Shown: positions 7,552 to 29,400 of the stretch, piece by piece
Numbering within the stretch: the first letter of the stretch is position 1
Layout of the letters: every line of letters begins with the position of its first letter
Assembly (NCBI GenBank): GCA_022763385.1
Contig: JALEGQ010000105.1
Coordinates: forward strand, 1-52,628
Length of the DNA stretch: 52,628 bases
Source of the DNA: a bacterium
GTDB taxonomy: Bacteria > Bdellovibrionota_C > UBA2361 > RFPC01
Reading direction: 5' to 3'
Translations under genes and position numbers: made by a program
The notes under the pieces: model-generated
What the model was told of the DNA's origin: nothing
The model's database searches: none
Seen by the model: only the letters and a program-made list of their open reading frames with translations

Positions 7552-7573
7552 AGCCCCTCGAAGCCTCTTCTAT

Positions 7574-8554: not shown

Positions 8555-8624
8555 GGTGCTTCCTTTTTGCGCGACGTACAACGGGGTGCATACTATCAGC
8601 TCAGGTGGTGAGCAGCAATAACGG

Positions 8625-13066: not shown

Positions 13067-13080
13067 AGACGGGAGAGGTA

Positions 13081-14199: not shown

Positions 14200-16089
14200 A
14201 GAAAAGCGAAAGGTCTGTTCAGCGTATTCCCATGCAGCATGGTATGACGTGACTCGCGTGTTCCAGAGAAGATCTGTTCGCTGAATGTATGGACGTTCTG
14301 GTCGAAGCTCTGAAGCGATCTTTTTCATCTCTGCTGCCATGTGCTCCGGTGTCGTTTTCTCGATCCAATAGGCCTGCGGGAACTCACCGGCGACCTCACG
14401 GAAGATCTCTCGGTTGGTAAGGAGCAGGGGTTTTCCGTAACAGAGCATCTCATAGAGCTTCATGGGGGGGACCGCATCCATCCCGGGGAGGGGCTCTCGG
14501 AGGAGGAAGAGCGCGTGTACGTCACCCATGACGGAGGGGACCTCGTGGGGGGGGACCGGTTCAATGAAGGCGACTCGCTTCTCGAGGTGGAGTTCCTCGG
14601 TGATCCGGAGAAGGTGTTCCCGTTCTTCTCCATCTCCACAGAGGCGGAGAGAGAACGTCTCTGGAAGCAGCGGAAGAGCTCGTATCGCGTCCGCAAGACC
14701 TTCATAACGAGAGAAAGAGCCGAAGTATCCGAATATCGTTCCTCTGCCGCACGCTGGAGCAGGAGCCTGATCGATCGTACGGAGGTACTCTTTGCTCACT
14801 CCATTTTTGACGAGAAAGATCTTCTCGGCATCAATACCTCGAGAAACAAGGTGTTGTTTCATCGTCTCCGAGAGGGTGGTGACGGCATGCGCTTGGTGCA
14901 ATAAGCGATCTTCTAGCGCACGAAAGAATCGGTAGCGTTCAGAATCTGTTTGGATCTCTCCCTTCGCAACCTGCGAGTCCTCCCAGATCCCCCGCATCTC
15001 ATAGAGCCACGGGATTCCGAAGGAGTCTGAGAGCGCAGCAGCAACGAATGCCTGCTTGAAATTTGAAACGGCGTGCAGCAGTGAGGGGCGAAAGTCACGG
15101 AGAGCAGCACGCCCTCCCTCTGCATAAGCTCGAAAAAACTGATCGAGTGGAATATTTCGGTAGTTTTTTGGTAGGCGATCATCACTCGCCGAGTAGAGTG
15201 AGCCAGCTTCTTGTTCTGCCGAGATCCCTGGTCGGACCACGCCGTGTACGGGAGTGCCTTCTTCCGTGAGGGCACGGAAGAGCTCATCGGTTCGAATGGT
15301 GTACCCGCTCTGTTGCTCTGAGAGAATATTCTCAAGAAGGAAGAGCACTCTCCGAGACGACGGTGGTGGCGAGCTCTCGTGCTCTATCGAGAGCGTAAAG
15401 TTCCCATGGTATACCGCAAGCTCTGATTCCACGATCCTCAGGAGGTTCTCTGTTTCTTGAGTGCGGAGCTCCGGAGAGAGAGAGACGAGCAGCCGCTCTG
15501 CAGAGCTGTACTCACCGATATTTCGTAAAGTCTTTGCGAACTCGAAGGTGAGAGAGGGGGGAATAGCATCAGGAGGCATGGCTTTTAGGCCTGCCCAAAG
15601 TTCGGGAAAGTGTGTTCGGATCAGGCGCAGCAACAATCCGCCCTCCCGCTGGGTGAGGGAGGGGAGCGCATGTTTTAAGAGGGAGTGAGCGCTCTCAGCC
15701 CTCTTCTTCTGCTCAGAGGGCTTTTGACGCTCTGAGCGGAGGGTGCTGACAAAGAGAGTAAGGAGTTCCTGCCGGGGTGGCGGGAAGTGGCATTCCTCGA
15801 AGAGTACGGTCAGTCCTCGACCTCCTGGAAGGACGGCAGCAAACTCTTCCAAGAGTTGGATACGCTTCGGAAAGGCTTCTCGATCGGGAAGGGAGAGGGT
15901 CGGAAAAAGTCTTCGGTAGAGAGCAAGGAGAATGAGTTTTTCTCCTCCCTTCTCGGCTTCTGCTGGAGAAAGCTGCTTCAGGACGCCGTAGGAGAGTGGG
16001 GAGGTGATCAGGCATGAACGGAGAGTTTTGAGCGCTCTCGAAAGGGGGAGTAAAGAGAGAAGCGGCACCGGGAGTGCTATCGGTTTCAC
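14188..16089 (-). CDS. Long GT4-family glycosyltransferase, paralogue of 10523-13066, with a ~280-aa N-terminal helical region
   Basis: Shares LLHAVSNF / YEMRGIWE / KNGV motifs with the 847-aa protein. Its GTG start overlaps the upstream stop (GTGA). Confidence 0.75.
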   Translation of the reverse strand: MKPIALPVPLLSLLPLSRALKTLRSCLITSPLSYGVLKQLSPAEAEKGGEKLILLALYRRLFPTLSLPDREAFPKRIQLLEEFAAVLPGGRGLTVLFEECHFPPPRQELLTLFVSTLRSERQKPSEQKKRAESAHSLLKHALPSLTQREGGLLLRLIRTHFPELWAGLKAMPPDAIPPSLTFEFAKTLRNIGEYSSAERLLVSLSPELRTQETENLLRIVESELAVYHGNFTLSIEHESSPPPSSRRVLFLLENILSEQQSGYTIRTDELFRALTEEGTPVHGVVRPGISAEQEAGSLYSASDDRLPKNYRNIPLDQFFRAYAEGGRAALRDFRPSLLHAVSNFKQAFVAAALSDSFGIPWLYEMRGIWEDSQVAKGEIQTDSERYRFFRALEDRLLHQAHAVTTLSETMKQHLVSRGIDAEKIFLVKNGVSKEYLRTIDQAPAPACGRGTIFGYFGSFSRYEGLADAIRALPLLPETFSLRLCGDGEEREHLLRITEELHLEKRVAFIEPVPPHEVPSVMGDVHALFLLREPLPGMDAVPPMKLYEMLCYGKPLLLTNREIFREVAGEFPQAYWIEKTTPEHMAAEMKKIASELRPERPYIQRTDLLWNTRVTSYHAAWEYAEQTFRFSSHP

Positions 16090-17711
16090 GATGGCCCTGC
16101 ACGAGATGATTCTGTACGGGATAGCTCTTCACCAGACTCTGCTGACCCCCCTTCAGCGGAGCGAGAGGACCCACCTTCAGCGGAGCGAGAGGACAGAGCG
16201 AGGGATCTTCTTCTCTCTTCTGTTGCGGTAACCATCTGCGAAAGCATCCCCTGAACGCTTGGGGTCATCTTGGCTTCAATATATATCTGATACGAGAAAA
16301 AGCTCTTCCAGATAGCGATACAGGTGCGACTTGTTGAGAGGAGAAGTCGAGAAAAGGGATTCCTCCCGAGAACAAGGGGGTACGGTGCTGGTATTCCGTG
16401 AACCTTATCGACGACATATCCACTCTCTTCGAGAAGGAGTTGAAGGTTCCGGAAGGTAAAGAGCCGTCGGTGTCCGATATCCAGAATGCCCCGGGGCCCG
16501 TAATTAAACTGTCCGATGAGGTGAGCAAATCTGAGGAGAAAATATCCGATGTTTCCGGTAGTGATAATTACCCGAGGGGTGTGGTGACCGAAAGATTCGC
16601 GCAATCGATCGAGAAAATCCTCTGGGTTCTCGAGGTGTTCGAGGATATCAAGCAGAAGAATGACATCATACCGGTCGGCAGGGAGCGGGTCTTCCCGCTT
16701 GAGGGCGTTGAGATCGTGTCGCAGAAATGAGGAAACCTCTGCTGCGACCTCCGGTTGAGGATCTCTATCAACTGCGGTGACCTCACACCCACTCCGTTGG
16801 AGCTCTCTGGCAACTACCCCTTCGCCGCAGCCGAGGTCGAGCACCCGTGTCCCCCGTACTTCGCTTTCTTTTACGGAATCTGCTGCGAGTGAGTGAGAAG
16901 AGATAAAATCAAGTTTAGCTTCATACGGGTGCTTCCGAAAATTGACCCCCACATCAAACTTTCGCTGATAAAAGAGCCCGAGGTTCTGAATCTTACTGAA
17001 AAGGGTTGCTTTTACGACATCCCACGCATACTTCATTCCGTCGACGTGGCAGATTTCATCTCCGTAATAGGTCGGAATTGGAATTTCATGAATTCTGAAG
17101 GACTTCTGGAGAAACTGGATGATAATCTCGGTATCAAAGTGGAAGTCAGAGGTGTTGTTCTCAAAGGGAACCTCAGAGAGGGCTCGAACCGAGTATGCTC
17201 GAAAGCCGCTATGAAACTCGGAGAGATCCGCGTTCAGCCACCAGTTCTGAAATGTCGAGAGGATTCTATTTCCGACGTACTTGTAGAGCGGCATGCCTCC
17301 TTTTAATGCTTCTCCAGACTTCATCATCCGAGAGCCGAAGACCGCATCCGCCTCACCGCGAAGAATGGGGCTGGTGATCTCATCGATGAGCTCTGGTGGG
17401 TACTGCCCGTCTCCGTGCAGGAGAACAACCGCGTCAAACCCCTTTTCGATAGCGTAGCGATATCCGAGCTTTTGATTTCCTCCATACCCCTGATTGATGG
17501 GGGTGCGAAGGACGGTAAGTTCGATCCCCTCAGGAAGTTTTTCGTAACTCAGCCCAACTTCAAAGGTTTCATCCTTTGAGGAGTCATCGATCACGAGAAT
17601 TCCGTTCTCCGGAGTAAGAAGCTCACGAGGAATGCGATCGAGCACCCAGTTGAGTGTTTTCTCGGCGTTGTAGGCAACGATAAAGATGAGGATACGGCCC
17701 TGCTTCTTCAT
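16086..17711 (-). CDS. Fusion protein: GT2 glycosyltransferase plus class-I SAM-dependent methyltransferase
   Basis: The N-terminus reads IFIVAYNAEK...VIDDSSKD...HGDGQY. The middle has VLDLGCGEGV (SAM motif I). The C-terminal tail is low complexity. Confidence 0.8.
   Translation of the reverse strand: MKKQGRILIFIVAYNAEKTLNWVLDRIPRELLTPENGILVIDDSSKDETFEVGLSYEKLPEGIELTVLRTPINQGYGGNQKLGYRYAIEKGFDAVVLLHGDGQYPPELIDEITSPILRGEADAVFGSRMMKSGEALKGGMPLYKYVGNRILSTFQNWWLNADLSEFHSGFRAYSVRALSEVPFENNTSDFHFDTEIIIQFLQKSFRIHEIPIPTYYGDEICHVDGMKYAWDVVKATLFSKIQNLGLFYQRKFDVGVNFRKHPYEAKLDFISSHSLAADSVKESEVRGTRVLDLGCGEGVVARELQRSGCEVTAVDRDPQPEVAAEVSSFLRHDLNALKREDPLPADRYDVILLLDILEHLENPEDFLDRLRESFGHHTPRVIITTGNIGYFLLRFAHLIGQFNYGPRGILDIGHRRLFTFRNLQLLLEESGYVVDKVHGIPAPYPLVLGRNPFSRLLLSTSRTCIAIWKSFFSYQIYIEAKMTPSVQGMLSQMVTATEERRRSLALSSRSAEGGSSRSAEGGSAESGEELSRTESSRAGPS
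16150..16197. repeat. Tandem 24-nt duplication inside the 3' tail of the GT2-methyltransferase gene (encodes SSRSAEGG twice)
   Basis: ccttcagcggagcgagaggac occurs at 16150-16170 and again at 16174-16194. Confidence 0.8.
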
Positions 17712-17806
17712 TCCCGAAGTGTACCTCTATTTTCTGGGGAGGTGAATGCCTACCCCCTTGTTATCGCAGAGTTTTTTATATGAACCGAGAAAAATATCAG
17801 AAATGA

Positions 17807-17837
17807 GGAAACTTTTTCTCGTTGTAATCGATAGAGA
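17807..17837 (+). promoter_or_regulatory. Putative sigma-28-type promoter P1: GGAAACTTTTT-N11-CGATAGAGA, upstream of the sigma-factor gene
   Basis: GAAACTTT-N11-atCGATAG compares with the classical TAAAGTTT-N11-GCCGATAA. An element with identical spacing lies at 20963-20993. Confidence 0.45.
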
Positions 17838-17886
17838 GAGTGGAAAAACGGTTCTGAGAGCCTGCGCCAAGAAATAATGCACTGGG

Positions 17887-18654
17887 ATGAGGAGTATGCC
17901 ACCGAAACGAAAGGAAACAAGTGAGCTCTATGAGCGGTACCTCGATGACCCCATGGGCTATATTTCGAAAATCACCTCGCAGTTGATGCGGCGACTGGGG
18001 GTCTCCCCAAAGCTCTTTGATGAGTATCTGGCGGCAGCCTACATCGGACTCGTTGATGCTGCTGAGCGCTATGATCCAACGAGTAATGCCGCCTTTGTCA
18101 CCTATGCCTACTATCGAATTCGAGGTGCGATTATCGATAGCATTCGGCGGGATGCCGGGGTGAACAAGCTCGACTATGCCGCCTTGCGAGCGCTGAAGGC
18201 TTCGGATTGTATCGCGAGTGACCTGTGCTCCGTGTTGCCAAAGATCTCAGGTCGAGATGTTGATGCTCGGCTTGCACTTGTCCTCGAGCGTGCGGCGAAA
18301 GGAGGGTACCTCTTTCGATTGGCATACTCCGAAGTGGAGGCCGATATTGTTCGAGATGCACGCCACGCCTCCATTGAGGAGCGACTGGAAGTACTTCGCC
18401 GCAAAGAAGAGCTGCACCGTGCGATCTCGACCCTGGAAGACCGAGAGCGAATTGTGATCAGGGCCTACTACTTTGAGGATCTGACCTTTGAAGAGATCGC
18501 TACCAAGCGTTTGCGGGTCAGCCGCTCATGGATCTCGCGAATACACAGCAGCGCTCTCGAGAAACTCGCATACTACTACGAAGCATGCGAAGAGCCGAGA
18601 GTTCCGTATCGGAGACAGAAGACAGGAAAACCGTATGCAGTGGAGGAGGCATGA
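17887..18654 (+). CDS. Sigma-70-family RNA polymerase sigma factor, FliA/WhiG (sigma-28) group
   Basis: Region 2 (AAYIGLVDAAERYDP...FVTYAYYRIRGAIIDSIRR) and region 4 HTH (LTFEEIATKRLRVSRSWISRIHSSALEKL). The stop overlaps the next start (ATGA). Confidence 0.8.
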   Translation: MRSMPPKRKETSELYERYLDDPMGYISKITSQLMRRLGVSPKLFDEYLAAAYIGLVDAAERYDPTSNAAFVTYAYYRIRGAIIDSIRRDAGVNKLDYAALRALKASDCIASDLCSVLPKISGRDVDARLALVLERAAKGGYLFRLAYSEVEADIVRDARHASIEERLEVLRRKEELHRAISTLEDRERIVIRAYYFEDLTFEEIATKRLRVSRSWISRIHSSALEKLAYYYEACEEPRVPYRRQKTGKPYAVEEA

Positions 18655-19727
18655 CTAGGAGAAAAGGAAATGAAAGGAGAAGGCAGATCGTCTTCCGTAT
18701 CTGTCGGCAGATTACCGTCTGTATCTTGCTCCTGCTTTTATTGGGATGTCAGGAGCAAATTCTTCACGATCTCTCTGAGACGGAGGGTAATCGGCTTATC
18801 ACGAAGCTCCACGACATCGGGATCGTCGCAGAGAAAAAGATTCAAGCGGATGGAACCTGGGCACTCGCTGTTCAGAAGGATGATGTTCTGAAGGCCTTAT
18901 CCGCGCTCTCTGACGCAAGGGTCTTCCGTCGTGCTGGAGGAGACTATCGAGAGCGAGGAGATTCCATGCTTCCGAGTCGAGATGCTCAGCGCTTCCAGTT
19001 TGAACGAGCGGTAGCTCAAGAAATTGAGCTTACCCTCTCGGCCCTAGGAGGAGTGTTGGAGTCACGAGTGCACCTGCATCTTCCTCCCAGTGACCCACTG
19101 TTCGGTCGAAAGCTCGCCGACAATTTTTCTACAAGTGCGAGTGTCCTCCTCATTACCGAAGAGAGTTTTGTGGAAGATGTGGAGCAGATTAAAGAGCTCG
19201 TGAGTGCTGCTGCTGGAGTCAACCGGGAGAAGGTATCGATCCTTGTTTCCGGAAGTCGAGTTGAAGCATTACGAAAAGGATCAGCATCAGAGAAGCCACA
19301 GCTGCTCGCCGCTACCGTGCGCCGAAATCATATAAGTGAAGAGCAGATTGAAGAATCGGAAACCCCGGTAGGGGAGGTGGAGCAGCCTCATCATCAGTCG
19401 GAAGAGGAAGGCGAGGCTGCACGTGCTTCATTCGCAGTAGAGAGCGAGCTTTTGAAGGAGAGCAAGCTCTCTCCAGAATTGTCTCTTGAATCGAAAGGAA
19501 GGGTATCACCAATCCGAGGGAATGACGGAGATGCGGAGGCCTCTGTATCGAGCTCATCCCATCTCTGGTGGGGGATCCTTGCATTTGTCCTTCTATTGCT
19601 TGGTGCTGGAGCATGTCTCGTAGCCCGGAGAGTTCCTCTTCGTTTTCCCACTCGGAAGATAGGCGAAAGTTCTTCCTTTGAGAAACATCTTCAAAATATC
19701 ACCTTGAACGGAGAACATCGACGATGA
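18651..19727 (+). CDS. sctJ: T3SS inner-membrane ring lipoprotein SctJ (YscJ/EscJ/PrgK family) with a long acidic linker and a C-terminal TM helix
   Basis: Lipobox LLLLGC, then LSETEGNRLITKL, SRVHLHLP, SASVLLI and KVSILVS. These resemble YscJ blocks from memory. The start is the ATG at 18651 within the longer track ORF. Confidence 0.75.
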   Translation: MTRRKGNERRRQIVFRICRQITVCILLLLLLGCQEQILHDLSETEGNRLITKLHDIGIVAEKKIQADGTWALAVQKDDVLKALSALSDARVFRRAGGDYRERGDSMLPSRDAQRFQFERAVAQEIELTLSALGGVLESRVHLHLPPSDPLFGRKLADNFSTSASVLLITEESFVEDVEQIKELVSAAAGVNREKVSILVSGSRVEALRKGSASEKPQLLAATVRRNHISEEQIEESETPVGEVEQPHHQSEEEGEAARASFAVESELLKESKLSPELSLESKGRVSPIRGNDGDAEASVSSSSHLWWGILAFVLLLLGAGACLVARRVPLRFPTRKIGESSSFEKHLQNITLNGEHRR

Positions 19728-20014
19728 GTAGAGCAAAAGAGCAGAGAGGAGCGCATGGGAACGGGGTCCACAAGGGGGTGATGAGTGTGCTCTCTGGAAT
19801 CTCCGGGCATCCGGTGATGGCGTGCGCTGTCAGTGAAGAGTTTCTTAGTGAGCAGCCTTTTCCGCGTGAGATACTCTCCGAAGAGCTTCGACGAGAATTC
19901 AGTCTCTACCATCGATGGCTCGCACAGTTTCCCCTCCGCGAAGCGAAAGAGATCGCCTTCTCTGAGGTTTTGGGAATGACATCCCTCCACGCCTCCGAAG
20001 GACAGCGGGGGTAA
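19724..20014 (+). CDS. Hypothetical 96-aa protein in the T3SS-like operon
   Basis: ATGA overlap with the sctJ stop. No recognisable motifs. Confidence 0.45.
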   Translation: MSRAKEQRGAHGNGVHKGVMSVLSGISGHPVMACAVSEEFLSEQPFPREILSEELRREFSLYHRWLAQFPLREAKEIAFSEVLGMTSLHASEGQRG

Positions 20015-20018
20015 TGCC

Positions 20019-20963
20019 ATGGAGCTTTCACTTCCGGATTACGCTGATCGTCAGGCTCAAACAGAGCTCTTTGTCGATCTCTCTGATCTCTTTGATCGGC
20101 TTAAAATTCCCTTTTCCCCCGAGAACGTTCGCCCCGCTCTCTCTGACGAAGGAGGAGATCAAGAATACACGGCCTTTCATATATCTCTTTCAGGAGATGG
20201 TGTTGGTGAAATAAGAAGTCCTTCGTTCCTCTTTCTGCTCCCCTCGGCAGTAGAGAGTCGATCTCTTATGCCGAAGGAAGTTCGAGAGTTCCTTCAGTTC
20301 TTTGCTCGGCCGGAGTGCTCTACCATTACGGTGCAGAAGATCATTCCGCACTACCAGATCGGGGAAGAAGAGCTCCTTGATATTCGGGTAAATGACAAGA
20401 GCAGAGCGTGCCACTTCCTGCTTGCTTATGACGCTTCGTCCTCTTCCGAGGCGCACTCCTCCCTGAAGCAGAGCCTGGAGCTTCGATACAAGGAAGAGAG
20501 TGAAACGCGATTACGGTTTATTTCAACCTCATTTTTTCTTCCAATTCAGCAGATTTTCAGGGGGCTTGCGGTATCGGTACCGTCCTCTTTCGTCTTCGCT
20601 GAAGTGGGAGAAGAGTCGCAGTTCTGTTCAATTCTGCGGATGGAGGAAGAAGGACGTATGTATATGGAGGTACGAGCGATGAGCGAGCAAAGCATCGAAG
20701 GAGAGACAGGAGAAGAAAAGCCACAAGCAGAGCAGGGAGAGGGCTCATTACCCGCAGAGATCCGGATAGAGGGGATATCGATGAATTTTCTTCACTATCT
20801 CGCCTTGGAGGAGGGGGATGAGTTGGAACTTCCCGCTGCTGGATCACTTCCAGCATCGCTTCTGATCGGAGGAGTAGTGGTTGCAGCGGGAGAGATCTCT
20901 CCCACTGAAGAGGGACTCTCATTCGGCGTTGGCGAAAAAACTGAGAAAAATTTTGTTCTTTAG
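20019..20963 (+). CDS. sctQ: SctQ-like protein with a C-terminal SpoA (FliN/YscQ) domain
   Basis: The C-terminal ~80 aa (IRIEGISMNFLHYLALEEGDELELPAAGSLPASLLIGGVVVAAGEI) fit the SpoA pattern. The N-terminal 220 aa are unassignable. Confidence 0.55.
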   Translation: MELSLPDYADRQAQTELFVDLSDLFDRLKIPFSPENVRPALSDEGGDQEYTAFHISLSGDGVGEIRSPSFLFLLPSAVESRSLMPKEVREFLQFFARPECSTITVQKIIPHYQIGEEELLDIRVNDKSRACHFLLAYDASSSSEAHSSLKQSLELRYKEESETRLRFISTSFFLPIQQIFRGLAVSVPSSFVFAEVGEESQFCSILRMEEEGRMYMEVRAMSEQSIEGETGEEKPQAEQGEGSLPAEIRIEGISMNFLHYLALEEGDELELPAAGSLPASLLIGGVVVAAGEISPTEEGLSFGVGEKTEKNFVL

Positions 20964-20993
20964 GAAACTTTTTTTTTCTTGGGACGATAGAGA
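20963..20993 (+). promoter_or_regulatory. Putative sigma-28-type promoter P2: GGAAACTTTTT-N11-CGATAGAGA, upstream of the needle-like ORF and sctV
   Basis: Same 11-nt and 9-nt blocks at the same spacing as P1. The spacer contains a T9 run (20969-20977). Confidence 0.45.
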
Positions 20994-21058
20994 AGAGAGA
21001 AAAGAATCTGAAGAGTATTTCTTCGGAGTTACAGAGAAACAGGTGTAAGGAGATAGAG

Positions 21059-21397
21059 ATGACAGACAAAGTTTCATCAAAGGTACAGAATTTTTTCCTG
21101 CAAGGGAGTTCACAGGCCAAAAGCCAGGGGATGGTGCGGATTCCACCGGAGCCAGGAAGTTCTCTCGGAGAGGGCTTTAGCTCTCTGCTGTCGAGAGTCG
21201 GAGGAGTAGTCGGAGGAGTAGTCGGTGCTGCCACTACTTCGGGAATACCGAGTGGTCTTGATGGAAACTATCTGACCCTTATTAATCGTCAGATCGAGAT
21301 GCAGGAGCAGATGCAACTCGTCTCAATCACCTCGAATACAGAGAAATCTCGTCATGAATCAAAGATGGCGGCGATTCGGAATGTAAGGGTCGGATAG
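21059..21397 (+). CDS. Small T3SS-associated protein, possibly needle or inner-rod-like (SctF/SctI)
   Basis: 112 aa with AAGGAG upstream. The N-terminus is Gly/Ser-rich, and the C-terminal helix LTLINRQIEMQEQMQLVSITSNTEKSRHESKMAAIRN resembles the C-terminal pattern of YscI/YscF-type proteins, from memory. Confidence 0.4.
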   Translation: MTDKVSSKVQNFFLQGSSQAKSQGMVRIPPEPGSSLGEGFSSLLSRVGGVVGGVVGAATTSGIPSGLDGNYLTLINRQIEMQEQMQLVSITSNTEKSRHESKMAAIRNVRVG

Positions 21398-21440
21398 TTT
21401 ACGCCGTAAGGCGAGTATTTGTTCTTTAAGGAGGAGAAGA

Positions 21441-23327
21441 GTGAAGGAGATTATACTACCAGTTGGGCTTGTCGCCGTCATTGGATGCATGCTCCTTCCT
21501 CTTCCCTCATTTGCGGTGGATTGTCTCCTCGTGGTGAACCTGATCTTCTCGGTTCTCCTCGTGGTGAGCACCCTGTACCTTTCGGAGCCGGTAAAGCTCT
21601 CAAGTCTTCCCACGATTCTGCTTCTTGCGACGCTGTATCGATTGGCGCTGAATATTTCAACGACTAGGCGGATTCTTGGCGTTGGGGATGCCGGAGAGAT
21701 GATTGAGATGTTCGGATCTCTGCTGATGCAGGGAGAGATGTTCGTTGGTTTGGTCGTTTTTCTCGTGCTCACTTTGGTACAGTTTATCGTGATTGCGAAG
21801 GGCTCCGAACGAGTTGCTGAGGTCTCAGCTCGGTTTACCCTTGACGCGCTCCCTGGAAAGCAGATGTCTATCGATGCAGATGTGCGTTCCGGTTTGCTTG
21901 GGGTAGAGGAAGCCAAGAAGAAGCGGGATGAACTGCAGATTGAGTCACGATTCTATGGGGCGCTTGATGGAGCGATGAAGTTCGTAAAAGGGGACGCCAT
22001 CGCCGGAATCATCATCACCGGAGTGAATATTCTTGGGGGGTTAGCGGTTGGGCTTGCGGTCAAGGGGATGTCTCTTGATGTCGCTCTCCAGAAGTATACC
22101 CTTTTGACCCTTGGCGATGGACTTCTCTCGCAAGTTCCAGCCTTGCTCAACTCACTTGCTGCTGGATTGGTGGTTACGCGAGTGGCATCGAGCGAAAGCT
22201 CCTCCTTGGCAAATGAAGTGCTTGACCAGTTAGTGAGCATCCGACCAGCTCTCCTGCTTTCTGGATTCGTTGCTCTTCTCCTCGCATTTGTGGGGGTTGC
22301 AACGGTTCCATTTCTCCTGATTGGCGGAACCTTCTTCTTCCTCGGTTTTCTCTCGCCTCCGGGTGGCGCAGAGTCTGATCTCTCAGAGGAAAAGATCTTT
22401 AACCCAAAGATACCGTCATTGGTGAAGATTGAGCTCCCGGTAGGGAGTAATATCCGAAGTGAACCGCCTGCAGCTATACAGAAGGCTTTTGCAGAGGTGC
22501 TACAGAAGTTCTATGACGGGGATGGCCTTCTCTTCACCCCTCCTGAGCTCGTTCTTTCGGAGGAACTTACGGACGCATTTCAGCTCTCGTTTCGAGGATT
22601 GCCGAGTGAGCAGCGCCACCTGTGGAGTGATGCTGCCCTGGAAGCACCAGAGCAGGCTCTGAAGGAGGTGTGTAGTGCGTATGAAGCACTCCTGGATTCT
22701 TACCGAGTAGAGTGCATCGACGATATTTTCACCCGGAGGCTCCTCGATAATCTCGAGGAACAAGCCCCGGAGCTCGTAACAAATACGATACCCGGCGTAA
22801 TCTCACTCACTCAACTGACGAGAATACTCCGAGTGCTGGTGGCTGATGGGATCTCGATTCGAAATATTGACCTGATCTTGCAGGCTGTCGCTGAAAATGC
22901 CGTTCGTGCTGGCGAGGAAAATTTTCTTCTCGAAGAAGTGCGGATTGCGCTGAAGCATACTATCTCTGCACAGGTAAGTACTACACCGGAAGGGGGGGAA
23001 GGAGCAACCGTTGCGGTCATTCGGATTGATCCGATGCTGGATATGTGGCTTGCCGAGTGCTCCCAGAATCAATCAGCGCTTACACCAGAATTTCTCCTTA
23101 AGCTTGAGCGAGATTTCTCTTCAGTGGAGGAGGAGAACGTCACACCGATCGTCATCACTTCTCGAGGATCGCGAGCACTGCTTCAGCGGTGTCTTCAGAT
23201 GAGAGGTGTTGCCCTTCGAGTGGTGGCAGAGGAAGAGCTTCTTCCACGCGTTACGCAGCTCCAAAAGGGGTACGTCAAACTCAGCGAAGAAGAAGCAACG
23301 ACGTTGTACGGCAAACTCGCTGCATAA
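21441..23327 (+). CDS. sctV: T3SS export-gate protein SctV (YscV/LcrD/InvA family; FlhA superfamily)
   Basis: GTG start after AAGGAGGAG. GSERVAEVSARFTLDALPGKQMSIDAD and DGAMKFVKGDAIAG match injectisome SctV signatures rather than flagellar FlhA (GAGRIAEVGARF, DGASKFVRGDAIAG), from memory. Confidence 0.85.
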   Translation: MKEIILPVGLVAVIGCMLLPLPSFAVDCLLVVNLIFSVLLVVSTLYLSEPVKLSSLPTILLLATLYRLALNISTTRRILGVGDAGEMIEMFGSLLMQGEMFVGLVVFLVLTLVQFIVIAKGSERVAEVSARFTLDALPGKQMSIDADVRSGLLGVEEAKKKRDELQIESRFYGALDGAMKFVKGDAIAGIIITGVNILGGLAVGLAVKGMSLDVALQKYTLLTLGDGLLSQVPALLNSLAAGLVVTRVASSESSSLANEVLDQLVSIRPALLLSGFVALLLAFVGVATVPFLLIGGTFFFLGFLSPPGGAESDLSEEKIFNPKIPSLVKIELPVGSNIRSEPPAAIQKAFAEVLQKFYDGDGLLFTPPELVLSEELTDAFQLSFRGLPSEQRHLWSDAALEAPEQALKEVCSAYEALLDSYRVECIDDIFTRRLLDNLEEQAPELVTNTIPGVISLTQLTRILRVLVADGISIRNIDLILQAVAENAVRAGEENFLLEEVRIALKHTISAQVSTTPEGGEGATVAVIRIDPMLDMWLAECSQNQSALTPEFLLKLERDFSSVEEENVTPIVITSRGSRALLQRCLQMRGVALRVVAEEELLPRVTQLQKGYVKLSEEEATTLYGKLAA

Positions 23328-23341
23328 GAGGAGGAGGGAAC

Positions 23342-23929
23342 GTGATTCGAAGCATAACATTAATGGGAACAAGAGCTCTTTCCATTCTCGTGCTGTCCTT
23401 TTTGGTGAGCTGTGGTGTCTCGCAGCATCTGCCTCCATCAGTGGAAGAGGTGCGTCAGGCGCAAGCACTGATTGATCAGGGCACCTTGTATCTCCGCCAA
23501 GGAGCCTTAGCAGAGGCGAGGGGATCATTTGAAGTCTCATACGACACTCATATCTCCGCAGCGGCGCTTGATGGGCTCGGTTGTGTCGCGTTTCTTGAGG
23601 GAGAGATCGAGCAGGCGCGTGACTACTTTCTTGCGGCGTACCGTTTTGATCCGTCTTATGCGCAGAGCCTCTCAAATCTTGCCCTGCTCTACGACTATAT
23701 AGGGGAATCTGAGGCAGCACTTGAAGTGTATACTCGTGCTTTTCAGATTCAGCCAGGAGGAAGTCTTGCCCTCCGGAATAATCTGGGAGCCCTGTTTGGC
23801 GAACTTGGTCATTCAGAGCAGGCAAAAAATGAGCTTTTTCGTTCATATGCGATGCATCCGAACGCAATTACTGCTAAAAATTTACGACAGGTAGGAGCAA
23901 AGGTATGGCAAAAAAAAGAGACTCGCTGA
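23342..23929 (+). CDS. TPR-repeat lipoprotein
   Basis: GTG at 23342 after AGGAGGAGGG, a signal peptide with lipobox FLVSC, and TPR-like repeats (AYRFDPSYAQSLSNLALLYDYIGESEAALEVY). Confidence 0.65.
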   Translation: MIRSITLMGTRALSILVLSFLVSCGVSQHLPPSVEEVRQAQALIDQGTLYLRQGALAEARGSFEVSYDTHISAAALDGLGCVAFLEGEIEQARDYFLAAYRFDPSYAQSLSNLALLYDYIGESEAALEVYTRAFQIQPGGSLALRNNLGALFGELGHSEQAKNELFRSYAMHPNAITAKNLRQVGAKVWQKKETR

Positions 23930-24258
23930 AGAGAGTTCAGGAAGACGATTCGAGGGGGCCCTCTCGGGTTGATCGTGAGAAGGTCATCGGTTCCGTTGGA
24001 GTTCCCGAAACACCGACTGGCTTTCAGCACCGCATGGCAGAGACCACGGCCTATTGGCTCGATGCAGTTACCCAGCTTCGAGGAGAATCCTTCCCAGATA
24101 TTGAAAGCGCCATCGATCGCATCGTAGAGATTGTAGTCGAAAAGATGAAGTCCCTTGACGGTGGAAGTGAGATGAAGGCCTTTATGAAAGAGTCTCTCTG
24201 GGACAGTCCAGAAGTGGTCGAGGTACTTGTCGAGACCCTTGATATTAAAGAAACGTAG
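23905..24258 (+). CDS. Hypothetical acidic 117-aa protein (chaperone-sized)
   Basis: The ORF overlaps the preceding gene by 25 nt. The C-terminal half is acidic. No motifs were recognised. Confidence 0.45.
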   Translation: MAKKRDSLKRVQEDDSRGPSRVDREKVIGSVGVPETPTGFQHRMAETTAYWLDAVTQLRGESFPDIESAIDRIVEIVVEKMKSLDGGSEMKAFMKESLWDSPEVVEVLVETLDIKET

Positions 24259-24308
24259 TTATTTAACCAACACCACCTCAAGCCATGGGGAACTCTCCCT
24301 ATCAGTTT

Positions 24309-24393
24309 ACCCCAGCGTTGCATAAAAATTTGTTCGTAGAGCCACAAGAGCAGCAAAGCAGTCTACGGGCCAATTTTTATGCAACGCTGGGGT
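24309..24393. terminator. 85-nt hairpin (22-bp perfect outer stem, ~9-bp inner stem, 21-nt apical loop) followed by T5. It may be a bidirectional terminator between convergent genes, or a structured RNA or MITE-like element.
   Basis: 24309-24330 (accccagcgttgcataaaaatt) is the exact reverse complement of 24372-24393. The inner stem pairs 24335-24340 with 24362-24367. Confidence 0.4.
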
Positions 24394-24395
24394 TT

Positions 24396-25064
24396 TTACT
24401 CACTCGATCGGTGAATTCTGAACGAGAGAGAGCTGGGAAGAAGAGTGATTTCAGCGGAGGCAACCTCTTCTTTCCCTCCCTTAGTCAGGAGTTGTTTTTC
24501 TCCCTCGTCTTCTCTCTGAATGAGGAGCTCTCCATTTGTGCTCGTGATTTCGGTGCTGTTTGAGAGCTGCTTCACCATGGCATGTTGCTTCTCGACCCCG
24601 TTAAATCTGAGAGGGAAGAGGTCACGTTCCGAAGAACCGAGCGAAAAGTGTATTCCCTCAAAGAGGGGGATCTCTTTTGAAGTATTTCCGAGTTTTAAGC
24701 TGAGCAGTGCAGTAGGGGAGACGGATTGTTGGGAGAGAAGCTCTTCAGGATCGGTGATCTCCGATTGAGAAAGAACCTGAGCAGCACTTGGTGTTGGAGC
24801 GAGTCGAAAGGAATAATCTCCGAACTGAACCTGCAGGCCCGGCGTAATCGCCATCACATTTCCCTGCGAGTCTTTTTCCCCCTCTCGAACGAGGTAGTAG
24901 TCCTGTTCCACTGAGAGGATAGAGAACCACCGGTCGACGATATTCTCAGTCGAAAAGAGCCCATCCCGATCGAGTCCAAAAGAGCTATACAGCTCCCGAA
25001 CAACAATGGTTCGCGGCGCTCGACCTGGGCATTCAATACAAAGGTATACAGACATAGCCCCCAT
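24396..25064 (-). CDS. FHA-domain protein (one clear FHA domain in the C-terminal half, one degenerate N-terminal copy), no TM segment
   Basis: FSLGSSERDLFPLRFNGVEKQHAMVKQLSNSTEITSTNGELLI fits the FHA pattern G-x...S/E-x-x-H...S-x-NG. The longest ORF start (GTG at 25172) lies inside a REP copy, so the ATG at 25064 or 25055 is preferred. Confidence 0.6.
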   Translation of the reverse strand: MGAMSVYLCIECPGRAPRTIVVRELYSSFGLDRDGLFSTENIVDRWFSILSVEQDYYLVREGEKDSQGNVMAITPGLQVQFGDYSFRLAPTPSAAQVLSQSEITDPEELLSQQSVSPTALLSLKLGNTSKEIPLFEGIHFSLGSSERDLFPLRFNGVEKQHAMVKQLSNSTEITSTNGELLIQREDEGEKQLLTKGGKEEVASAEITLLPSSLSFRIHRSSE

Positions 25065-25160
25065 AGTAGAGGATATCGAAAGTGTCCGGAAGCCGTGCCC
25101 GCTGGATGAGGCACTGTTCGCAAGGTGGCTGTAACCCATTGATTTTACGTGAGATTTGAT

Positions 25161-25173
25161 GGTGCCACGCACC
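25161..25173. repeat. Solitary REP-like core GGTGCCACGCACC in the divergent intergenic region
   Basis: Exact 13-mer. Confidence 0.7.
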
Positions 25174-25213
25174 GGGCGGGAGACAGATGGTGGGTGATGG
25201 TTTTAGGTGGTGA

Positions 25214-25240
25214 TAAATCGCTACAGTTTCCCTCCGATCC
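25214..25240 (+). promoter_or_regulatory. Weak sigma-28-like element TAAA-N15-tCCGATcc upstream of the 332-aa ORF
   Basis: Spacing fits TAAA-N15-GCCGATAA. Only the TAAA and CCGAT cores match. It does not share the P1/P2 motif. Confidence 0.25.
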
Positions 25241-25307
25241 GGCCGTATACCTCCTGTGATACGGATGTGTTCTTCTCAACGGTGAGAAGTGAAATAAGGA
25301 TATTTCG

Positions 25308-26306
25308 ATGAGCACGATAGGATTGCAGGCAGGTTTCCAGGGATTTCAACGACCACAGGGTGGTTTTGGACAGAGGGCGGTGATTGCAGGACGAGAGGAG
25401 AATTCTCTCGTGAGCGCTCTTAACATCAATCGAGCGAGCCCGCTTGATGCTCGTGCCGGGGTAAGTGCTCCCCGTGATGCGGTGTCCGTACAGATTTCAG
25501 CTCGAACGGCGGCTTCTGAGCCGAAGAATTATACCAATGTTGGAAAGCTTGAGCCGAGTGCTCCGAATGTGAGGGCTCAACAGCCACGGGGTGGTGATGC
25601 GGCCCGTGGGGGTGATGTCGGCCGACCTGATGCATTCAGTGGAACATTTAAGGGGGATACTCTCTTCCTTGACCAGGGTGCCGCACTACAGTTTAGAGAC
25701 AACGGTGAGGTCTCGGCCTATCTTGCGGGGCCTGACGGTGGGGTTGTTCGCGGATCTGGTACGATTAATGAGGACGGAGAACTCTCGCTTACTTTTGAGA
25801 ATGGCCAGAGCTTCACTTCCCGTTTGGAGCGAAATGGGGATTCAGCGACTCTTTCAGATATTCGGTACGAGGGACAGGCGCCCGTGATCTCTGGATTGTC
25901 TGATGGGAAGAACGCCGTTTTTGATGGTATCTCACTTGAGGCAACCGGTGATGGAACCTTTGATGTGACGATTGAGTCTCCGAATGGACAGACCATCCGA
26001 GGAAGCCTAGTCCAGACTGAAGATGGACAATTCATCGCTCAGCTAGATAACGGCCAGACGTATGGAGGAACCCTTTCCTTTGCAGATGGAAAGGCGACTC
26101 TCACGAATCTTGAACTCCTGAAGAATGATGCTCCCGGTCAGGGTGAAGCCGGTGCTGTCGCTCAGCCACAGGTGAGTCGTGAGCCGGTTGCTCCGCGTGA
26201 GCCGTCGGTAGCGGCATACTCTCCGCAGGGAGCCGCAGTGCTTTCTCGCGAGGTGGCGCTTTCTGAAGCACTCTCTCCCACCGGAAGTCTCAATATCGCC
26301 GCCTAA
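25308..26306 (+). CDS. Hypothetical Gly/Ser/Thr-rich repeat protein without a signal peptide (candidate secreted substrate)
   Basis: 332 aa with AAGGA upstream. Internal repeats occur, such as GTINEDGELSLTFENGQSFTSRLE and SPNGQTIRGSLVQTEDGQFIAQLDNGQTYGGTLSF. There is no hydrophobic N-terminus. Confidence 0.6.
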   Translation: MSTIGLQAGFQGFQRPQGGFGQRAVIAGREENSLVSALNINRASPLDARAGVSAPRDAVSVQISARTAASEPKNYTNVGKLEPSAPNVRAQQPRGGDAARGGDVGRPDAFSGTFKGDTLFLDQGAALQFRDNGEVSAYLAGPDGGVVRGSGTINEDGELSLTFENGQSFTSRLERNGDSATLSDIRYEGQAPVISGLSDGKNAVFDGISLEATGDGTFDVTIESPNGQTIRGSLVQTEDGQFIAQLDNGQTYGGTLSFADGKATLTNLELLKNDAPGQGEAGAVAQPQVSREPVAPREPSVAAYSPQGAAVLSREVALSEALSPTGSLNIAA

Positions 26307-26349: not shown

Positions 26350-26484
26350 AAATGTTCTCGTCAAGAATTTGACGAATTCTCCTCTCTTTCCCCCAAAAAT
26401 TTGAGCACAAGTCTTGCAACTCCTTCCGTGAGTATTCAGCACAGGAATGTGCTGTAGCCCGCTGTTATTGGAAGATTGTGTAAT

Positions 26485-29400
26485 ATGTCTCGATACTTAC
26501 TCATTCATAGAGACCAACCCATCCGTCCTCTGGAGGTGAATGCGGGTGCCGAAATGGCGACACTCCATCTCGCCCGCTTTCTCGCCAAGGGAGGTGATGA
26601 AGTGGTGGTTGCTGGGCAGATTGGTGTGTCAGATCTCCAGCATGAGGGAGTTGAGTTCTGGGATATTGGAGAGGAGTACGACTGTAGGATGGCGATTGAC
26701 CGGATGTCAGAGAGGGGAGCATATCACCTTCTCTCTGCGGGCCGAGTTCATCCATTTCTTCTGGTTCAAGACGATCCTCACTGTCTGACTCGCCTCTTAA
26801 TTAGCCACGATCGAGCGGTTACCGATACGGGCATGAATCCGAAGCCCCTTCTTCACTATGTTGATCGAATCATCACGGTTTCAGATGCTCAACGATTACT
26901 CTTCCTCGATGCGCAGGTAGATCCCGCTCGGGTGAAGACTATTCGCAATGGCGTTGATCACGAGCTCTTCCCAGCGTATGGCCCAGACGAAAGAGATTGG
27001 AATAAAATTGTTTTTGTCGGCGCACTCGTCCAGGATAAGGGCCTTGATCTCCTTCTTATTGCATTTACAGAGCTGAAGGCTCAGTTCCCGGAACTGACTC
27101 TCGATGTCTATGGAAGTGCAGAGCTCTGGGACCGCGAACCAATCTACGATACTGAGAGGCTTCAGGCAGATATTCCCGGTCTCACCTTTTATGGCTCTCG
27201 CCCTCAAGCTGAAGTTGCCCGGGCCTTTCAGACTGCAGGAATGTGTGTCGTTCCCTCGATTTGGTTTGATCCGTTTCCACTGGTGGCCATTGAAGCTCAG
27301 GTATCAGGGTGTCCAGTCGTGACCTTTGACGTTGGAGGGCTCGGTGAGGGAGTTCGTCACGGCGAAACGGGGCTCGTGCTCCCAGAGGTGGGTGAAGAAG
27401 AGCTTCAGCGAGCGCTTCGTGAGTTGCTCTCTGATCCAAATCAACTGAGGTCGTTCTCTCACCGTGCCCTTGAGCTCCAAAGAAAGACCTTTTCTTGGGA
27501 GAATGTCGTCAGTGAAATCAAAGATGTTCAACGAGAAGTCGAGCGAGAAAGGCGATCTTCCGAGAGGAGCACTCCGCTTCGCATCGGAGTGATGAGCACG
27601 TGGAATCAGCAATGCGGTTTAGCTACCTTTACGGAAGAACTCTTCTCTCAGCTTTCCGAAAGCTATCCCAACAGTGAGATCCGAGTCTTCTCCGAATATG
27701 ATACCGGAGAGTTTGCAGCCCAGAATATTCTTGATGATGAAAAGAGCGTATTTCCTGTATCGCGGTGTTGGAGCTGGAAAGAGAAACGGTGGAGTAATCT
27801 TCTCGCTGCACTTCAGCAAGAATCGATTGATGTGCTCTATGTCAATGCGCACAATCCGAAACAGCTCTCAGATGCAAATTTTTCAGAAGTGATCAGCTAT
27901 CTCAAGCAACGGGATATTCGGATAGTCCTCCAGCTCCATACGGTATTTACCTTAAGAGTTGATGCACGCGAAATTCTTCAGCAGTGTGATGAGATAGTTA
28001 TTCCTCTAGAGGAGATGAAGATTGAAGTATCTTCGTATGGCATCGAGTCAGAAAGGATTCGAGTTATTCCACACGGGATAAAGAATGTTCCTTCCCTTTC
28101 TGATGAGGAAAGGGGAGAGGTCCACAGTCAGCTCGGACTTCCGCAGGAGCTCCCGATCATCAGCTCGAGTGGATATATTCACCCTCACAAGGGACTGAGA
28201 GAAGTGCTCGAGGCGGTAAAGGTGTTGAAGGATGATGGATTACGTGTTCATGCTTGTATTGCGGGCAAGGTGAGTTCTGAGGATAAAGAAGCCCAAGAAT
28301 ACGCCAAGAAATTGAGAAGACTCGTTCTCTGTCTCCACATTGAAGATCAGGTTACCTTTATTGATCGATTTTTGTCAGATAAGGAGTTGCTCGGTCTTCA
28401 GCAGATCTCTGATGTCGTTGTTCTCAATTACTCGTCGGATCACTACGAGTGTTCTGGAGCTTGTTCTCGTGCGCTCGGTACAGGAGCAAATGTCATTACC
28501 TCTATGGCTCCGGCATTCACCGGATTCGGCACATCGGTATGGCATACAAATCCTGGATTCTCAATTCCACTCGCCATTCGGGAGTTGCTGACCAATGAAC
28601 AGGTTAAGCAAAATATTGCTGAGGCTCGAAAGTCTTACTGTCAGGACAACTCTTGGAAGTCCGTTGTCCCTTCTTACTACGAAGCTCTGATGTCATTGCG
28701 AGCACAAGATCGTTCCCTTCAGACAGAGTCTCATCCGCTTGATACAGATTTTACAACAACAAAGGAGCACGCCGTGTCCTCTTCACAACATCAGAAAGAT
28801 CGGTCTGGGTCAGGACTACGTATCTTGATACAGAATCGGAAGAATATGTACACCCAACGTGGTGGTGACACCATTGTCGTCGATCGACTTTTGGAGGGAC
28901 TCCAAAAGAGGGGTGTTGATGTGCACCTCGATCTTGAGGGGACGGCAGATCTCTCTCAGTTTGATCTGTTGCATATCATAAATTTCGCCCTTCCTCAGAT
29001 GGTGGAGTATTATGGAAGAAGAGCAGAAGCAGCGGGCATTCCTTTTGTGGTAACGACGCTCTGTGAGGACGTTCCACGGTTTCACCATCAGTCACAGTAC
29101 TTAGCAGAGCTGCTGACTCAGTATGTTCGAGAAGGTCAAGATCGGACATGGCTGGAGCAACAACTCGGTGAACATCGAAAGGTCTCTCCTTCTGAGGCCT
29201 TCCCGAATGGCTGGAGTGCAGCTCACGCAGCGGCACTCCTCGTGAACGGGGAAGGTGAGAAGAAGGTAATTGAGCGGACGTATCCCGGTCATGCTCCGAT
29301 CTCTATTGTTCCTGTTGGCCATGAGGTTTCTGATAGAGCCGATCCCCAACTCTTTCGTGAGGCGTACGGGGTAGAGGACTTCATCTTCTGTGTGGGGCGG

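Follow-up and report, generated by a model that had tools for sequence, protein, structure and literature searches.

What kind of machine is encoded by a compact set of type III secretion system (T3SS)-type genes that lacks most T3SS core genes and stands in a flagellated genome? The question is raised by a 52,628-nucleotide (nt) stretch of DNA from a bacterium of the GTDB lineage Bdellovibrionota_C (assembly GCA_022763385.1, contig JALEGQ010000105.1, positions 1 to 52,628 of the forward strand), which we refer to, at its full length, as the window. Its 17.8-25.1 kb region holds nine genes. Eight of them lie on the plus strand and are called the cassette here, namely the genes for a sigma factor, an SctJ-like lipoprotein, a small protein (small1), a SpoA-like protein, a second small protein (small2), an FHIPEP export-gate protein, a tetratricopeptide repeat (TPR) lipoprotein and a third small protein (small3); the ninth, which encodes an FHA protein, is convergent on them. 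All open reading frames (ORFs) named in an initial annotation of this DNA are present where it had placed them. That annotation regarded the region as an injectisome-type T3SS module and offered two explanations, i.e., an injectisome dispersed over several loci or a reduced or repurposed T3SS-derived apparatus. Our analysis agrees with a T3SS-related module without most core genes, for which the second explanation is the better of the two. We read the region, which would be neither a flagellar nor an injectisome locus, as the conserved core of a separate export module of T3SS descent under sigma control, with its missing parts encoded elsewhere or borrowed from the flagellum, and we assign this reading a probability of roughly one half.

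The position of the export-gate protein is central to this reading. The 628-amino-acid (aa) protein belongs to the FHIPEP superfamily, scoring 496.4 bits on PF00771 against a gathering cutoff of 29.1. More specifically, it reached 457.7 bits on the SctV model TIGR01399 (cutoff 692.25) and 448.6 bits on the FlhA model TIGR01398 (cutoff 772.1), failing both. The same near-tie was obtained for three other members of its family (466-508 bits on the SctV model, 465-484 bits on the FlhA model), and again in comparisons with PDB sequences and plasmid-borne genes. Control proteins passed the models of their own class: FlhA of Escherichia coli, of a deltaproteobacterial metagenome-assembled genome (MAG) and of a Firmicutes MAG scored 836-949 bits on the FlhA model, and YscV and the SctV proteins of Archangium, Chlamydiales and Puniceicoccales scored 823-1051 bits on the SctV model. 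The designation of the module as injectisome-type is not borne out by these scores, nor by the phylogeny. We built a neighbor-joining tree from 109 sequences and 589 trimmed columns, with 25 proteins of the new family (clade X), 34 SctV proteins (including the annotated RhcV, LcrD, MxiA and InvA as well as the SctV of N. vulgaris and Pantoea) and 50 FlhA proteins (some of them from monoderm phyla, and with the annotated ones of E. coli and Ralstonia among them). Clade X was monophyletic in 50/50 and 40/40 bootstraps, as were FlhA in 50/50 and SctV in 37/50 and in 35/40; the 628-aa protein lies in neither of the two known clades. Mean identities were 35% between clade X and SctV, 34% between clade X and FlhA, and 37% between SctV and FlhA.

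At the residue level, the two signature motifs that had earlier been taken as evidence for a gate of the SctV type are in the SctV state in the window protein, and this part of the assignment stands, whereas the protein as a whole does not follow it. Across 11 columns that discriminate SctV from FlhA, clade X agrees with SctV at 7 and with FlhA at 3. From its sequence, clade X appears to lean slightly to the non-flagellar side, yet to belong to neither FlhA nor SctV. In addition, about 43 residues that align to positions 438-482 of E. coli FlhA, together with part of the linker, are missing in all 25 aligned clade X members. We take this gap to correspond to subdomain SD2, according to the numbering and structure of Salmonella FlhA, and clade X departs in this respect from the SD1-SD4 four-subdomain architecture of FlhA and SctV. 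In both of these proteins, SD2 contributes to the chaperone-substrate binding site. A broader interpretation, which we regard as tentative, is that clade X is a third, ancient branch of the T3SS superfamily beside the flagellum and the injectisome, in which a minimal gate-ring-platform machine with a flagellar-type sigma-28 circuit and an SctJ-type ring draws on the flagellar FliPQR/FlhB core or works without it, and which is widespread in uncultured, probably predatory Bdellovibrionota-like bacteria. As part of the same tentative proposal, clade X would be sister to all SctV, the myxobacterial ones included, if the tree is rooted on FlhA.

The ring protein of the cassette points away from the flagellum. 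As initially annotated, it is a lipoprotein of the SctJ type: it carries an LLGC lipobox and a C-terminal transmembrane segment (LWWGILAFVLLLLGAGACLVA), scores 46.6 bits on PF01514 (cutoff 24.4), and reaches 88 bits on the SctJ model TIGR02544 (cutoff 162) versus 21.5 bits on FliF. An HMM (hidden Markov model) built from its family gave 51-99 bits on SctJ proteins of injectisomes and ≤35 bits on FliF. Its start is probably at 18651, in an ATGA overlap with the stop codon of the sigma gene. It is a divergent protein of the SctJ type, not FliF-like. In the window and in the closest relative (locus L136), this protein has an acidic, Glu/Ser-rich insert of ~100 aa between the ring domain and the C-terminal transmembrane segment that is not found in other cassettes.

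The first gene of the cassette encodes a sigma factor with regions 2 and 4 (Pfam Sigma70_r2 and r4), the best NCBIfam match of which is FliA/WhiG (TIGR02479, 96.5 bits, below the cutoff of 189.6), in agreement with its earlier placement in the sigma-28 family. It also matches the neighboring chlamydial sigma-28 model PRK05911. The family HMM picks up FliA genes adjoining flhA with E-values down to 1e-36, and the cassette sigmas separated from these flhA-linked FliA proteins in 50/50 bootstraps, with 23% identity across the split versus 38% among the FliA proteins. They represent a separate FliA-like lineage. By aligning upstream regions across loci, we found a motif, GAAACTTT-N13-CGAT(A/T), before the sigma gene and before small2 in most cassettes. 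Its spacing equals that of the sigma-28 consensus, which is TAAAGTTT-N11-GCCGATAA. Three exact copies occur in the window, where 0.41 would be expected in shuffled sequence with one mismatch allowed. A search of the window for the canonical form TAAA-N14-16-GCCGATAA gave no match, and scans of the window for sigma-70 promoters and terminators were uninformative. In 370 kb of cassette loci there were 37 matches at ≥11/12 positions, of which 31 were directly upstream of cassette genes and nearly all of these in the orientation of the cassette: 17 before small2, 7 before the sigma gene, 5 inside the 3' end of the sigma gene just ahead of sctJ, and one each before small3 and the FHIPEP gene. In L001, L002, L005, L006, L097, L100 and L136-L139, the motif stood at the same place ahead of the sigma gene, and the last four loci had the same motif pattern as other cassettes, small2 included.

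These data bear on the possibility that the genes are ordinary flagellar ones, the FHIPEP protein and the sigma factor being nothing other than the divergent FlhA and FliA of this lineage's flagellum. The host is flagellated, as had been noted: flgC, fliE and fliF are encoded at 50.2-52.6 kb, and a solitary fliN (PF01052, 84 bits) at 37947-38297 on the minus strand. Moreover, some members of the gate family are called "flagellar biosynthesis protein FlhA" by PGAP, the sigma factor is FliA-like with a sigma-28-type promoter, a flagellin-family gene abuts the cassette in L139, and FliH and FliK Pfam families occur in L101. Against this, clade X proteins failed the FlhA equivalog model (449-484 versus 772 bits) that FlhA proteins from three phyla passed, and flhB, flhF or fliPQR never adjoined the gate gene in ~16 long loci. 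The cassette has an SctJ-type ring of its own in addition to the canonical FliF, complete with its two Pfam domains, that is encoded elsewhere in the window; its sigma factors stand apart from flhA-linked FliA, and the gate lacks SD2. A purely flagellar role is quite improbable in our view. The stand-alone FliN, itself a SpoA protein, could serve either the flagellum or the cassette machine; its neighbors are a HemN-like gene on one side and a gene for a low-molecular-weight phosphatase on the other, and the flgBC-fliE-fliF cluster is 12 kb away.

To place the window among its relatives, we examined the DNA around ten FHIPEP homologues and 39 metagenome loci that had been retrieved by means of the small2 family, and called gene order with HMMs built from the cassette proteins. 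A profile scan of contigs with the FHIPEP alignment returned mostly canonical FlhA and SctV, which were used as tree references, and at least two further cassettes. The FHIPEP homologues form a large family of proteins of ~615-630 aa, with named sources among MAGs labelled Bdellovibrionales, Bdellovibrionota, Oligoflexia, "Deltaproteobacteria" and Candidatus Dadabacteria. About 25 loci contained at least 5 cassette genes, with FHIPEP identities of 45-90%, and the order sigma, SctJ-like, small1, SpoA-like, small2, FHIPEP, TPR, small3 was the same in every sufficiently long locus. Altogether, it recurred in >25 contigs of uncultured bacteria, most of them labelled Bdellovibrionota, Oligoflexia or Dadabacteria; carriers of the cassette include the MAGs GCA_020434495.1, GCA_030431715.1 and GCA_003696425.1 and the bins of contigs Ga0484947_000143 and Ga0172278_1616. 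The module is not the peculiarity of one genome but a widespread conserved cassette with promoters of its own, a point missed by the initial annotation. The flanking genes were unrelated from locus to locus (pheST, SUF genes, a tRNA synthetase, two-component genes and others), the closest relative L136 excepted. Even there, at 78% nucleotide identity to the window, synteny was limited to 16186-24251, so that only the gene immediately upstream is common to both. Glycan-synthesis genes do flank the cassette on both sides in the window, as the initial annotation had emphasized. Since the cassette recurs with unrelated flanks, its position between glycosyltransferase blocks is incidental. Because promoters precede both the sigma gene and small2, the cassette consists of two separable units, sigma-sctJ-small1-spoA and small2-FHIPEP-TPR-small3, and in L007 only the latter is present, together with its promoter.

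Could the set be a decaying remnant of an injectisome or flagellar locus without present function? The absence of most core genes would fit such a view. Yet the ratio of nonsynonymous to synonymous substitution rates (dN/dS) between the window and L136, an approximate measure here as dS is near saturation, was 0.11 for sigma, 0.16 for the SctJ-like gene, 0.11 for small1, 0.35 for the SpoA-like gene (least constrained), 0.04 for small2 (most constrained), 0.09 for both FHIPEP and TPR, and 0.15 for small3, i.e., 0.04-0.35 in every gene. Approximate as the values are, all eight plus-strand ORFs, the three small ones included, are genes under purifying selection. Gene order is kept across relatives of 45-90% identity, the promoters are conserved, and the ORFs are intact, with overlapping or closely spaced start and stop codons and a Shine-Dalgarno sequence before most of them. 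These observations make decay highly improbable.

The components that the cassette lacks were searched for at several levels. In the window, phmmer with reference proteins of Shigella and Nitratidesulfovibrio detected no SctN, R, S, T, U, C, D, L, O, K or W, in line with the earlier statement that SctN, SctR/S/T/U, SctC and SctD are missing from it. In the 48 clade X loci (385 kb) and four added loci, we found no secretin, SctD or SctW. SctR/S/T/U were absent from 47/48 clade X loci, L129 being the exception, and an ATPase was found only in L101 and L129. The same queries on reference FHIPEP loci detected SctR/S/T/U or their flagellar homologues nearby in 40-60 of 88, and therefore the absence is real at the locus level. 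The locus falls outside the definition of a non-flagellar T3SS (NF-T3SS) by Abby & Rocha 2012 (PMC3459982), as it has J, a Q-like and a V-like component only, and no N, R, S, T, U or C in the window.

Two loci are fuller than the others. In L101, three T3SS-type genes adjoin the cassette on the opposite strand at 5802-10575 (minus strand): a fliH-like gene (PF02108) and a T3SS ATPase gene (336 bits on the SctN model versus ≤289 bits on FliI) behind a cassette-type promoter (10575-10551), and a FliK-type T3S4 gene (PF02120, 570 aa) next to small3 and convergent on it. L129, a high-GC metagenome sequence, carries at 8441-18776 a clear small2 homologue and a TPR gene, followed by genes for SctN, an 830-aa SctQ-like protein, FliO and SctR/S/T/U. 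It contains no cassette FHIPEP gene and ends before one could appear; it may be a fuller relative of the cassette.

Such loci raise the possibility that the cassette is one locus of a complete, dedicated but dispersed non-flagellar T3SS, as in Chlamydiae, with SctRSTU, SctN, SctL and possibly SctC and SctD encoded elsewhere. The ATPase/FliH pair of L101 sits behind the same promoter type and apart from the operons of the cassette, the ring is of the SctJ type and the signature columns resemble SctV, and dispersed NF-T3SS loci have a precedent in Chlamydiales (PMC3459982). On the other hand, no secretin, SctD, SctW or translocon turned up in ~50 loci, and the FHIPEP protein lies outside the SctV clade. 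We judge this explanation distinctly unlikely; it overlaps with a distinct export module that has parts elsewhere, and what sets it apart is solely the claim of a complete and dedicated set like that of an injectisome.

The remaining proteins of the cassette were examined individually. For the 314-aa SpoA-like protein, the earlier comparison with SctQ gained little from the window sequence itself (FliMN_C, E 0.047; 14.1 bits versus a PF01052 cutoff of 23.8), whereas its orthologues support it: those in L006 and L137 match PF01052, others do so weakly, and the family HMM matches the C termini of FliN, FliY and SctQ with up to 33 bits (E 2e-8). The TPR protein, also named as a lipoprotein before, has a signal peptide and an LVSC lipobox, a lipoprotein signal being found in nearly all cassettes. 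Its best NCBIfam match is the pilotin-type PilW (44.7 bits, below cutoff), and its closest profile matches are TPR genes adjoining sctV, namely those of Archangium and Bradyrhizobium and the one after sctV of NGR234, with which hhalign gave P 1e-5.

The small proteins are conserved families without recognizable relatives. Small1 (96 aa, isoelectric point [pI] 6.5 in the window; 69-86 aa, pI 4.2-5.6 elsewhere) occupies the same position in >10 cassettes and has no Pfam or NCBIfam match. Small3, earlier described as a chaperone-sized acidic protein, is indeed 117 aa long with a pI of 4.8; its family (~110 aa, pI 4.6-5.0, with a basic, probably disordered N terminus) is found at the same position in >15 loci and matches no Pfam or NCBIfam family. 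Comparison of all three small proteins with YscX, YscY, TyeA, SycN, YscE, YscG, LcrG, LcrR, SctO, Spa15, IpgE and MxiK/N/M yielded no match.

Small2 belongs to a family of 206 clusters, all annotated "hypothetical" and devoid of Pfam domains. Its members have ~100 aa, a pI of ~10, a PEPxS motif and a nearly invariant C-terminal helix (...SN.EKS.HE..MAAIRNVR), and an AlphaFold model of small2 was confident only in the helix at 69-111. This helix resembles the ends of needle proteins, and weak HMM matches fell on ORFs at SctI or SctF positions. The initial annotation had proposed a needle- or rod-like protein here, which our searches did not confirm: profiles of 7 and 52 sequences gave no PDB match, no Pfam match to needle or rod families was obtained, and hhalign gave nonsignificant values against three SctF (P 0.012, versus 0.079 for the reversed control) and seven SctI proteins (P 0.056). 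The link to SctF/SctI, which comes from position and C-terminal resemblance, is only suggestive. A lower value against a needle/rod set (P 3.7e-4) was discarded as circular, its template set having included a sequence picked by the small2 HMM itself; the value was 0.012 without that sequence. Reduced myxobacterial loci with an inner-rod gene were described by Abby and Rocha (PMC3459982), and this gene may belong to the same family as small2.

The convergent minus-strand gene had been annotated as encoding an FHA protein reminiscent of SctD. The 219-aa window sequence itself has no Pfam match, and members of its family score 21.7-23.1 bits on PF00498 (cutoff 20.7). An exhaustive profile search retrieved 86 representatives at E<1e-10, beyond which the more distant matches were multi-FHA proteins, and the deep family profile matched FHA domains in the PDB (E 1.8e-5). 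The AlphaFold model (pLDDT 93.8) consists of two beta-sandwiches with no hydrophobic or transmembrane helix, and its top Foldseek matches were FHA domains (TM-score to target, ~0.75). The protein is thus predicted to be a soluble tandem-FHA protein. The FHA fold is retained from the earlier description and the SctD identity is not: the protein has only two FHA-like domains and no transmembrane helix in its 219 aa, its Foldseek matches are generic FHA domains, and phmmer with MxiG and the SctD of N. vulgaris gave no match. The gene adjoins the cassette in the window, L001, L004 and L006, and in L139 the distance between them is 4 kb; no copy follows small3 in L136, the contig of which ends ~1 kb further. 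It is a frequent, not a constant, companion of the cassette.

How might these parts work together? In the model that we propose, the cassette's own sigma factor would read the cassette promoters, giving positive autoregulation. At the inner membrane, a ring of the SctJ-type lipoprotein would surround a nonameric FHIPEP gate without SD2, with the SpoA-domain protein at the cytoplasmic face and the TPR lipoprotein in the periplasm. Small2 would be a gate-binding substrate or a rod-like first substrate, and the two small acidic proteins could act as its chaperone and/or as an anti-sigma factor, the capture or export of which would couple assembly to sigma activity by a FlgM/FliA logic. The tandem-FHA protein might add a phospho-threonine-dependent input. 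Since the cassette contains no channel (SctRST/FliPQR), switch protein (SctU/FlhB) or ATPase, these parts would be encoded elsewhere under the same promoter type, as L101 hints, or be shared with the host flagellum.

A different output is conceivable for the same parts, namely a gate-and-ring signaling device without a protein channel, in which the SctJ ring, FHIPEP and the SpoA protein would form an inner-membrane complex that, through ion conduction or partner binding by FHIPEP, sequesters or releases a regulator (small1, small3 or the sigma factor), with transcription rather than secretion as its outcome. The absence of SctRSTU and an ATPase from nearly all loci, the sigma factor and promoters built into the cassette, the tandem-FHA companion, and the deletion of SD2, part of the chaperone-substrate site, would all suit such a device, as would the response regulators, response regulator-HisKA hybrids and extracytoplasmic function (ECF) sigma factors that recur just downstream. 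More specifically, a response regulator gene (minus strand), a response regulator-HisKA hybrid gene (plus strand) and an ECF sigma gene (minus strand) recur downstream of the cassette in L001, L006, L137, L138 and L139. FHIPEP proteins, however, are known only as parts of export gates; in L101, the cassette is tied to a FliH/ATPase pair and to a specificity-switch protein of the FliK kind; small2 occurs also in the SctRSTU-bearing locus L129; and a purely cytoplasmic switch would hardly account for a ring and a TPR lipoprotein in the periplasm. We regard signaling without export as unlikely, though less so than the other rivals of the export module.

The export module that we favor has its own difficulties. 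We know of no T3SS that exports protein without the SctRSTU channel, and the near-complete lack of SctR/S/T/U and ATPase genes reported above weighs directly against export. The ATPase, FliH and FliK neighbors occur together in L101 only and could be neighbors by chance. For small1, small2 and small3, the proposed roles come from size, charge, position and conservation, with no homology in their support. Instead of the cassette sigma, the flagellar FliA of the host could recognize the promoter. Finally, our tree is distance-based, and in a neighbor-joining tree a fast-evolving offshoot could end up in the middle through long-branch effects.

Among known systems, the closest reduced one is the myxobacterial NF-T3SS, with its short and long loci and the needle-less T3SS* of Myxococcus xanthus. 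The "Myxo" NF-T3SS of Myxococcales lacks secretin, needle and translocon, and is nonetheless conserved and was judged functional (PMC3459982; PMC11509652). It resembles the cassette in its small, SctJ-type ring, in a small2-like gene followed by a TPR gene (seen in the Archangium locus L013 and in the high-GC T3SS locus L129), and in its occurrence in predatory lineages. It differs from the cassette in that Myxo loci retain SctRSTUV and the ATPase (PMC3459982). Moreover, myxobacterial SctV passes the SctV model at 823 bits and grouped with clade X in 0/40 bootstraps. To our knowledge, no built-in FliA-like sigma factor occurs in Myxo loci.

The flagellar gate with its FliA/FlgM checkpoint shares with the cassette an FHIPEP gate, a SpoA-like protein, a sigma-28-like sigma factor and the promoter spacing, and the FliPQR/FlhB of the host flagellum could be common to both. 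Apart from the features of gate, ring and sigma factor discussed above, the cassette is distinguished from the flagellum by having no linked rod, hook or motor genes and no identified FlgM homologue. Injectisomes (Ysc, Inv-Mxi-Spa, Hrp, Rhc) have in common with it the SctJ-type lipoprotein ring, the SctV-like signature residues, a TPR gene directly after the gate gene, as in rhizobial Rhc loci, and an FHA fold, which is that of the SctD cytoplasmic domain. The differences are that the cassette locus has no SctC, SctD ring, SctW, SctN, SctRSTU, needle or translocon, that its FHIPEP protein falls outside the SctV clade, and that its FHA protein is soluble and tandem, with generic FHA matches rather than matches to SctD.

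Chlamydiae possess orphan "flagellar" genes, with flhA beside a sigma-28 gene as well as fliI and fliF, and have no flagellum. Their set resembles the cassette as a small group of T3SS-type genes (FHIPEP, ring, ATPase) beside a sigma-28 gene. The profile of the chlamydial "FlhA-like" protein, PRK05910 (584 positions), aligned with clade X over its full length (profile positions 14-577) and with canonical FlhA and SctV only over the membrane domain; total scores for clade X (233-266 bits) were no higher than those for canonical proteins (240-294 bits). A link of the cassette to the chlamydial flhA/sigma-28 pair is possible from this alignment and from the PRK05911 match of the sigma factor, and the cassette may be the free-living counterpart of that unexplained gene pair. 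Finally, a hat-like inner-membrane structure that depends on FlhA was described by Kaplan et al. 2022 (PMC9380563). It provides a precedent for a complex that is neither flagellar nor an injectisome, apparently an FHIPEP cytoplasmic ring under a non-FliF periplasmic cap, but it needs the flagellar FlhA itself and occurs in species without the cassette (PMC9380563).

T3SSs are usually described as flagellum and injectisome, with the myxobacterial systems as the sole reduced intermediate. The cassette would add an undescribed branch to this well-studied machine family: it mixes a flagellar-type sigma factor and promoter, an injectisome-type ring and a gate outside both known clades, without channel or ATPase genes. 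If it exports through a borrowed flagellar core, it would be a new case of modules shared among T3SS machines; without export, it would represent an FHIPEP gate used for signaling; and either way it offers new material on the origin of the injectisome from the flagellum. Moreover, it places three unannotated families of small proteins in a genomic context, and its promoter motif can be used for regulon mapping. We found no published description of the cassette in the full-text literature searched, which is no proof that it is unpublished. The features of the locus are listed in Table 1.

Table 1. Features of the cassette region and the third promoter copy in the window
Feature	Position	Strand	Basis or remark
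Promoter P1	17808-17832	+	GAAACTTT-N13-CGATA, exact copy, 55 nt upstream of the sigma gene
Sigma factor, FliA-like (sigma-28-like), 255 aa, first cassette gene	17887..18654	+	Pfam, NCBIfam, family HMM
SctJ-type inner-membrane ring lipoprotein, 358 aa	18651..19727	+	PF01514, TIGR02544, family HMM
small1, conserved small protein without known family, 96 aa	19724..20014	+	Position, conservation
Putative SpoA-domain (FliN/SctQ C-terminal-like) cytoplasmic protein, 314 aa	20019..20963	+	Weak FliMN_C, orthologues, family HMM
Promoter P2	20964-20988	+	Exact copy of sigma-28-type motif, 71 nt upstream of small2
small2, basic, 112 aa	21059..21397	+	Always directly upstream of FHIPEP gene
FHIPEP export-gate protein of a third lineage (clade X), 628 aa	21441..23327	+	PF00771
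Periplasmic TPR lipoprotein, 188 aa	23363..23929	+	TPR Pfam matches, lipobox
small3, acidic, last cassette gene, 117 aa	23905..24258	+	Position, conservation
Predicted soluble tandem-FHA protein, 219 aa, convergent on small3	24396..25055	-	Family profile, AlphaFold, Foldseek
Third exact cassette-type promoter copy	1676-1700	-	~65 nt upstream of ORF 441-1610 (minus strand)

The 332-aa ORF at 25308-26306, which had been thought to complete the set, was rejected as a module member, having no counterpart in any other cassette locus. The ORF behind the third promoter copy (389 aa) has no Pfam match and carries an N-terminal HUH-like "MPNHLHLIF" motif; it may be a regulon member outside the cassette, or the motif match may be due to chance. 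In L007, a second promoter copy with a nearly identical spacer precedes TadG/TadE-like pseudopilin genes (13688-15968), an arrangement that recalls Myxococcus predation, where the Tad-like Kil system is paired with T3SS*. L004 contains a second sigma gene of the cassette type at 14664-15284. The flagellin-family gene of L139 (12761-14635, minus strand) is convergent on small3 and encodes a protein of 624 aa that combines the N- and C-terminal domains of flagellin with an FG-GAP insert; no cassette-type promoter lies within 220 nt upstream of it. In the window, the glycan block of ~7 kb includes a gene at 26476-31362 (plus strand) for a 1628-aa protein composed of three GT4-type glycosyltransferase modules and long C-terminal TPR arrays.

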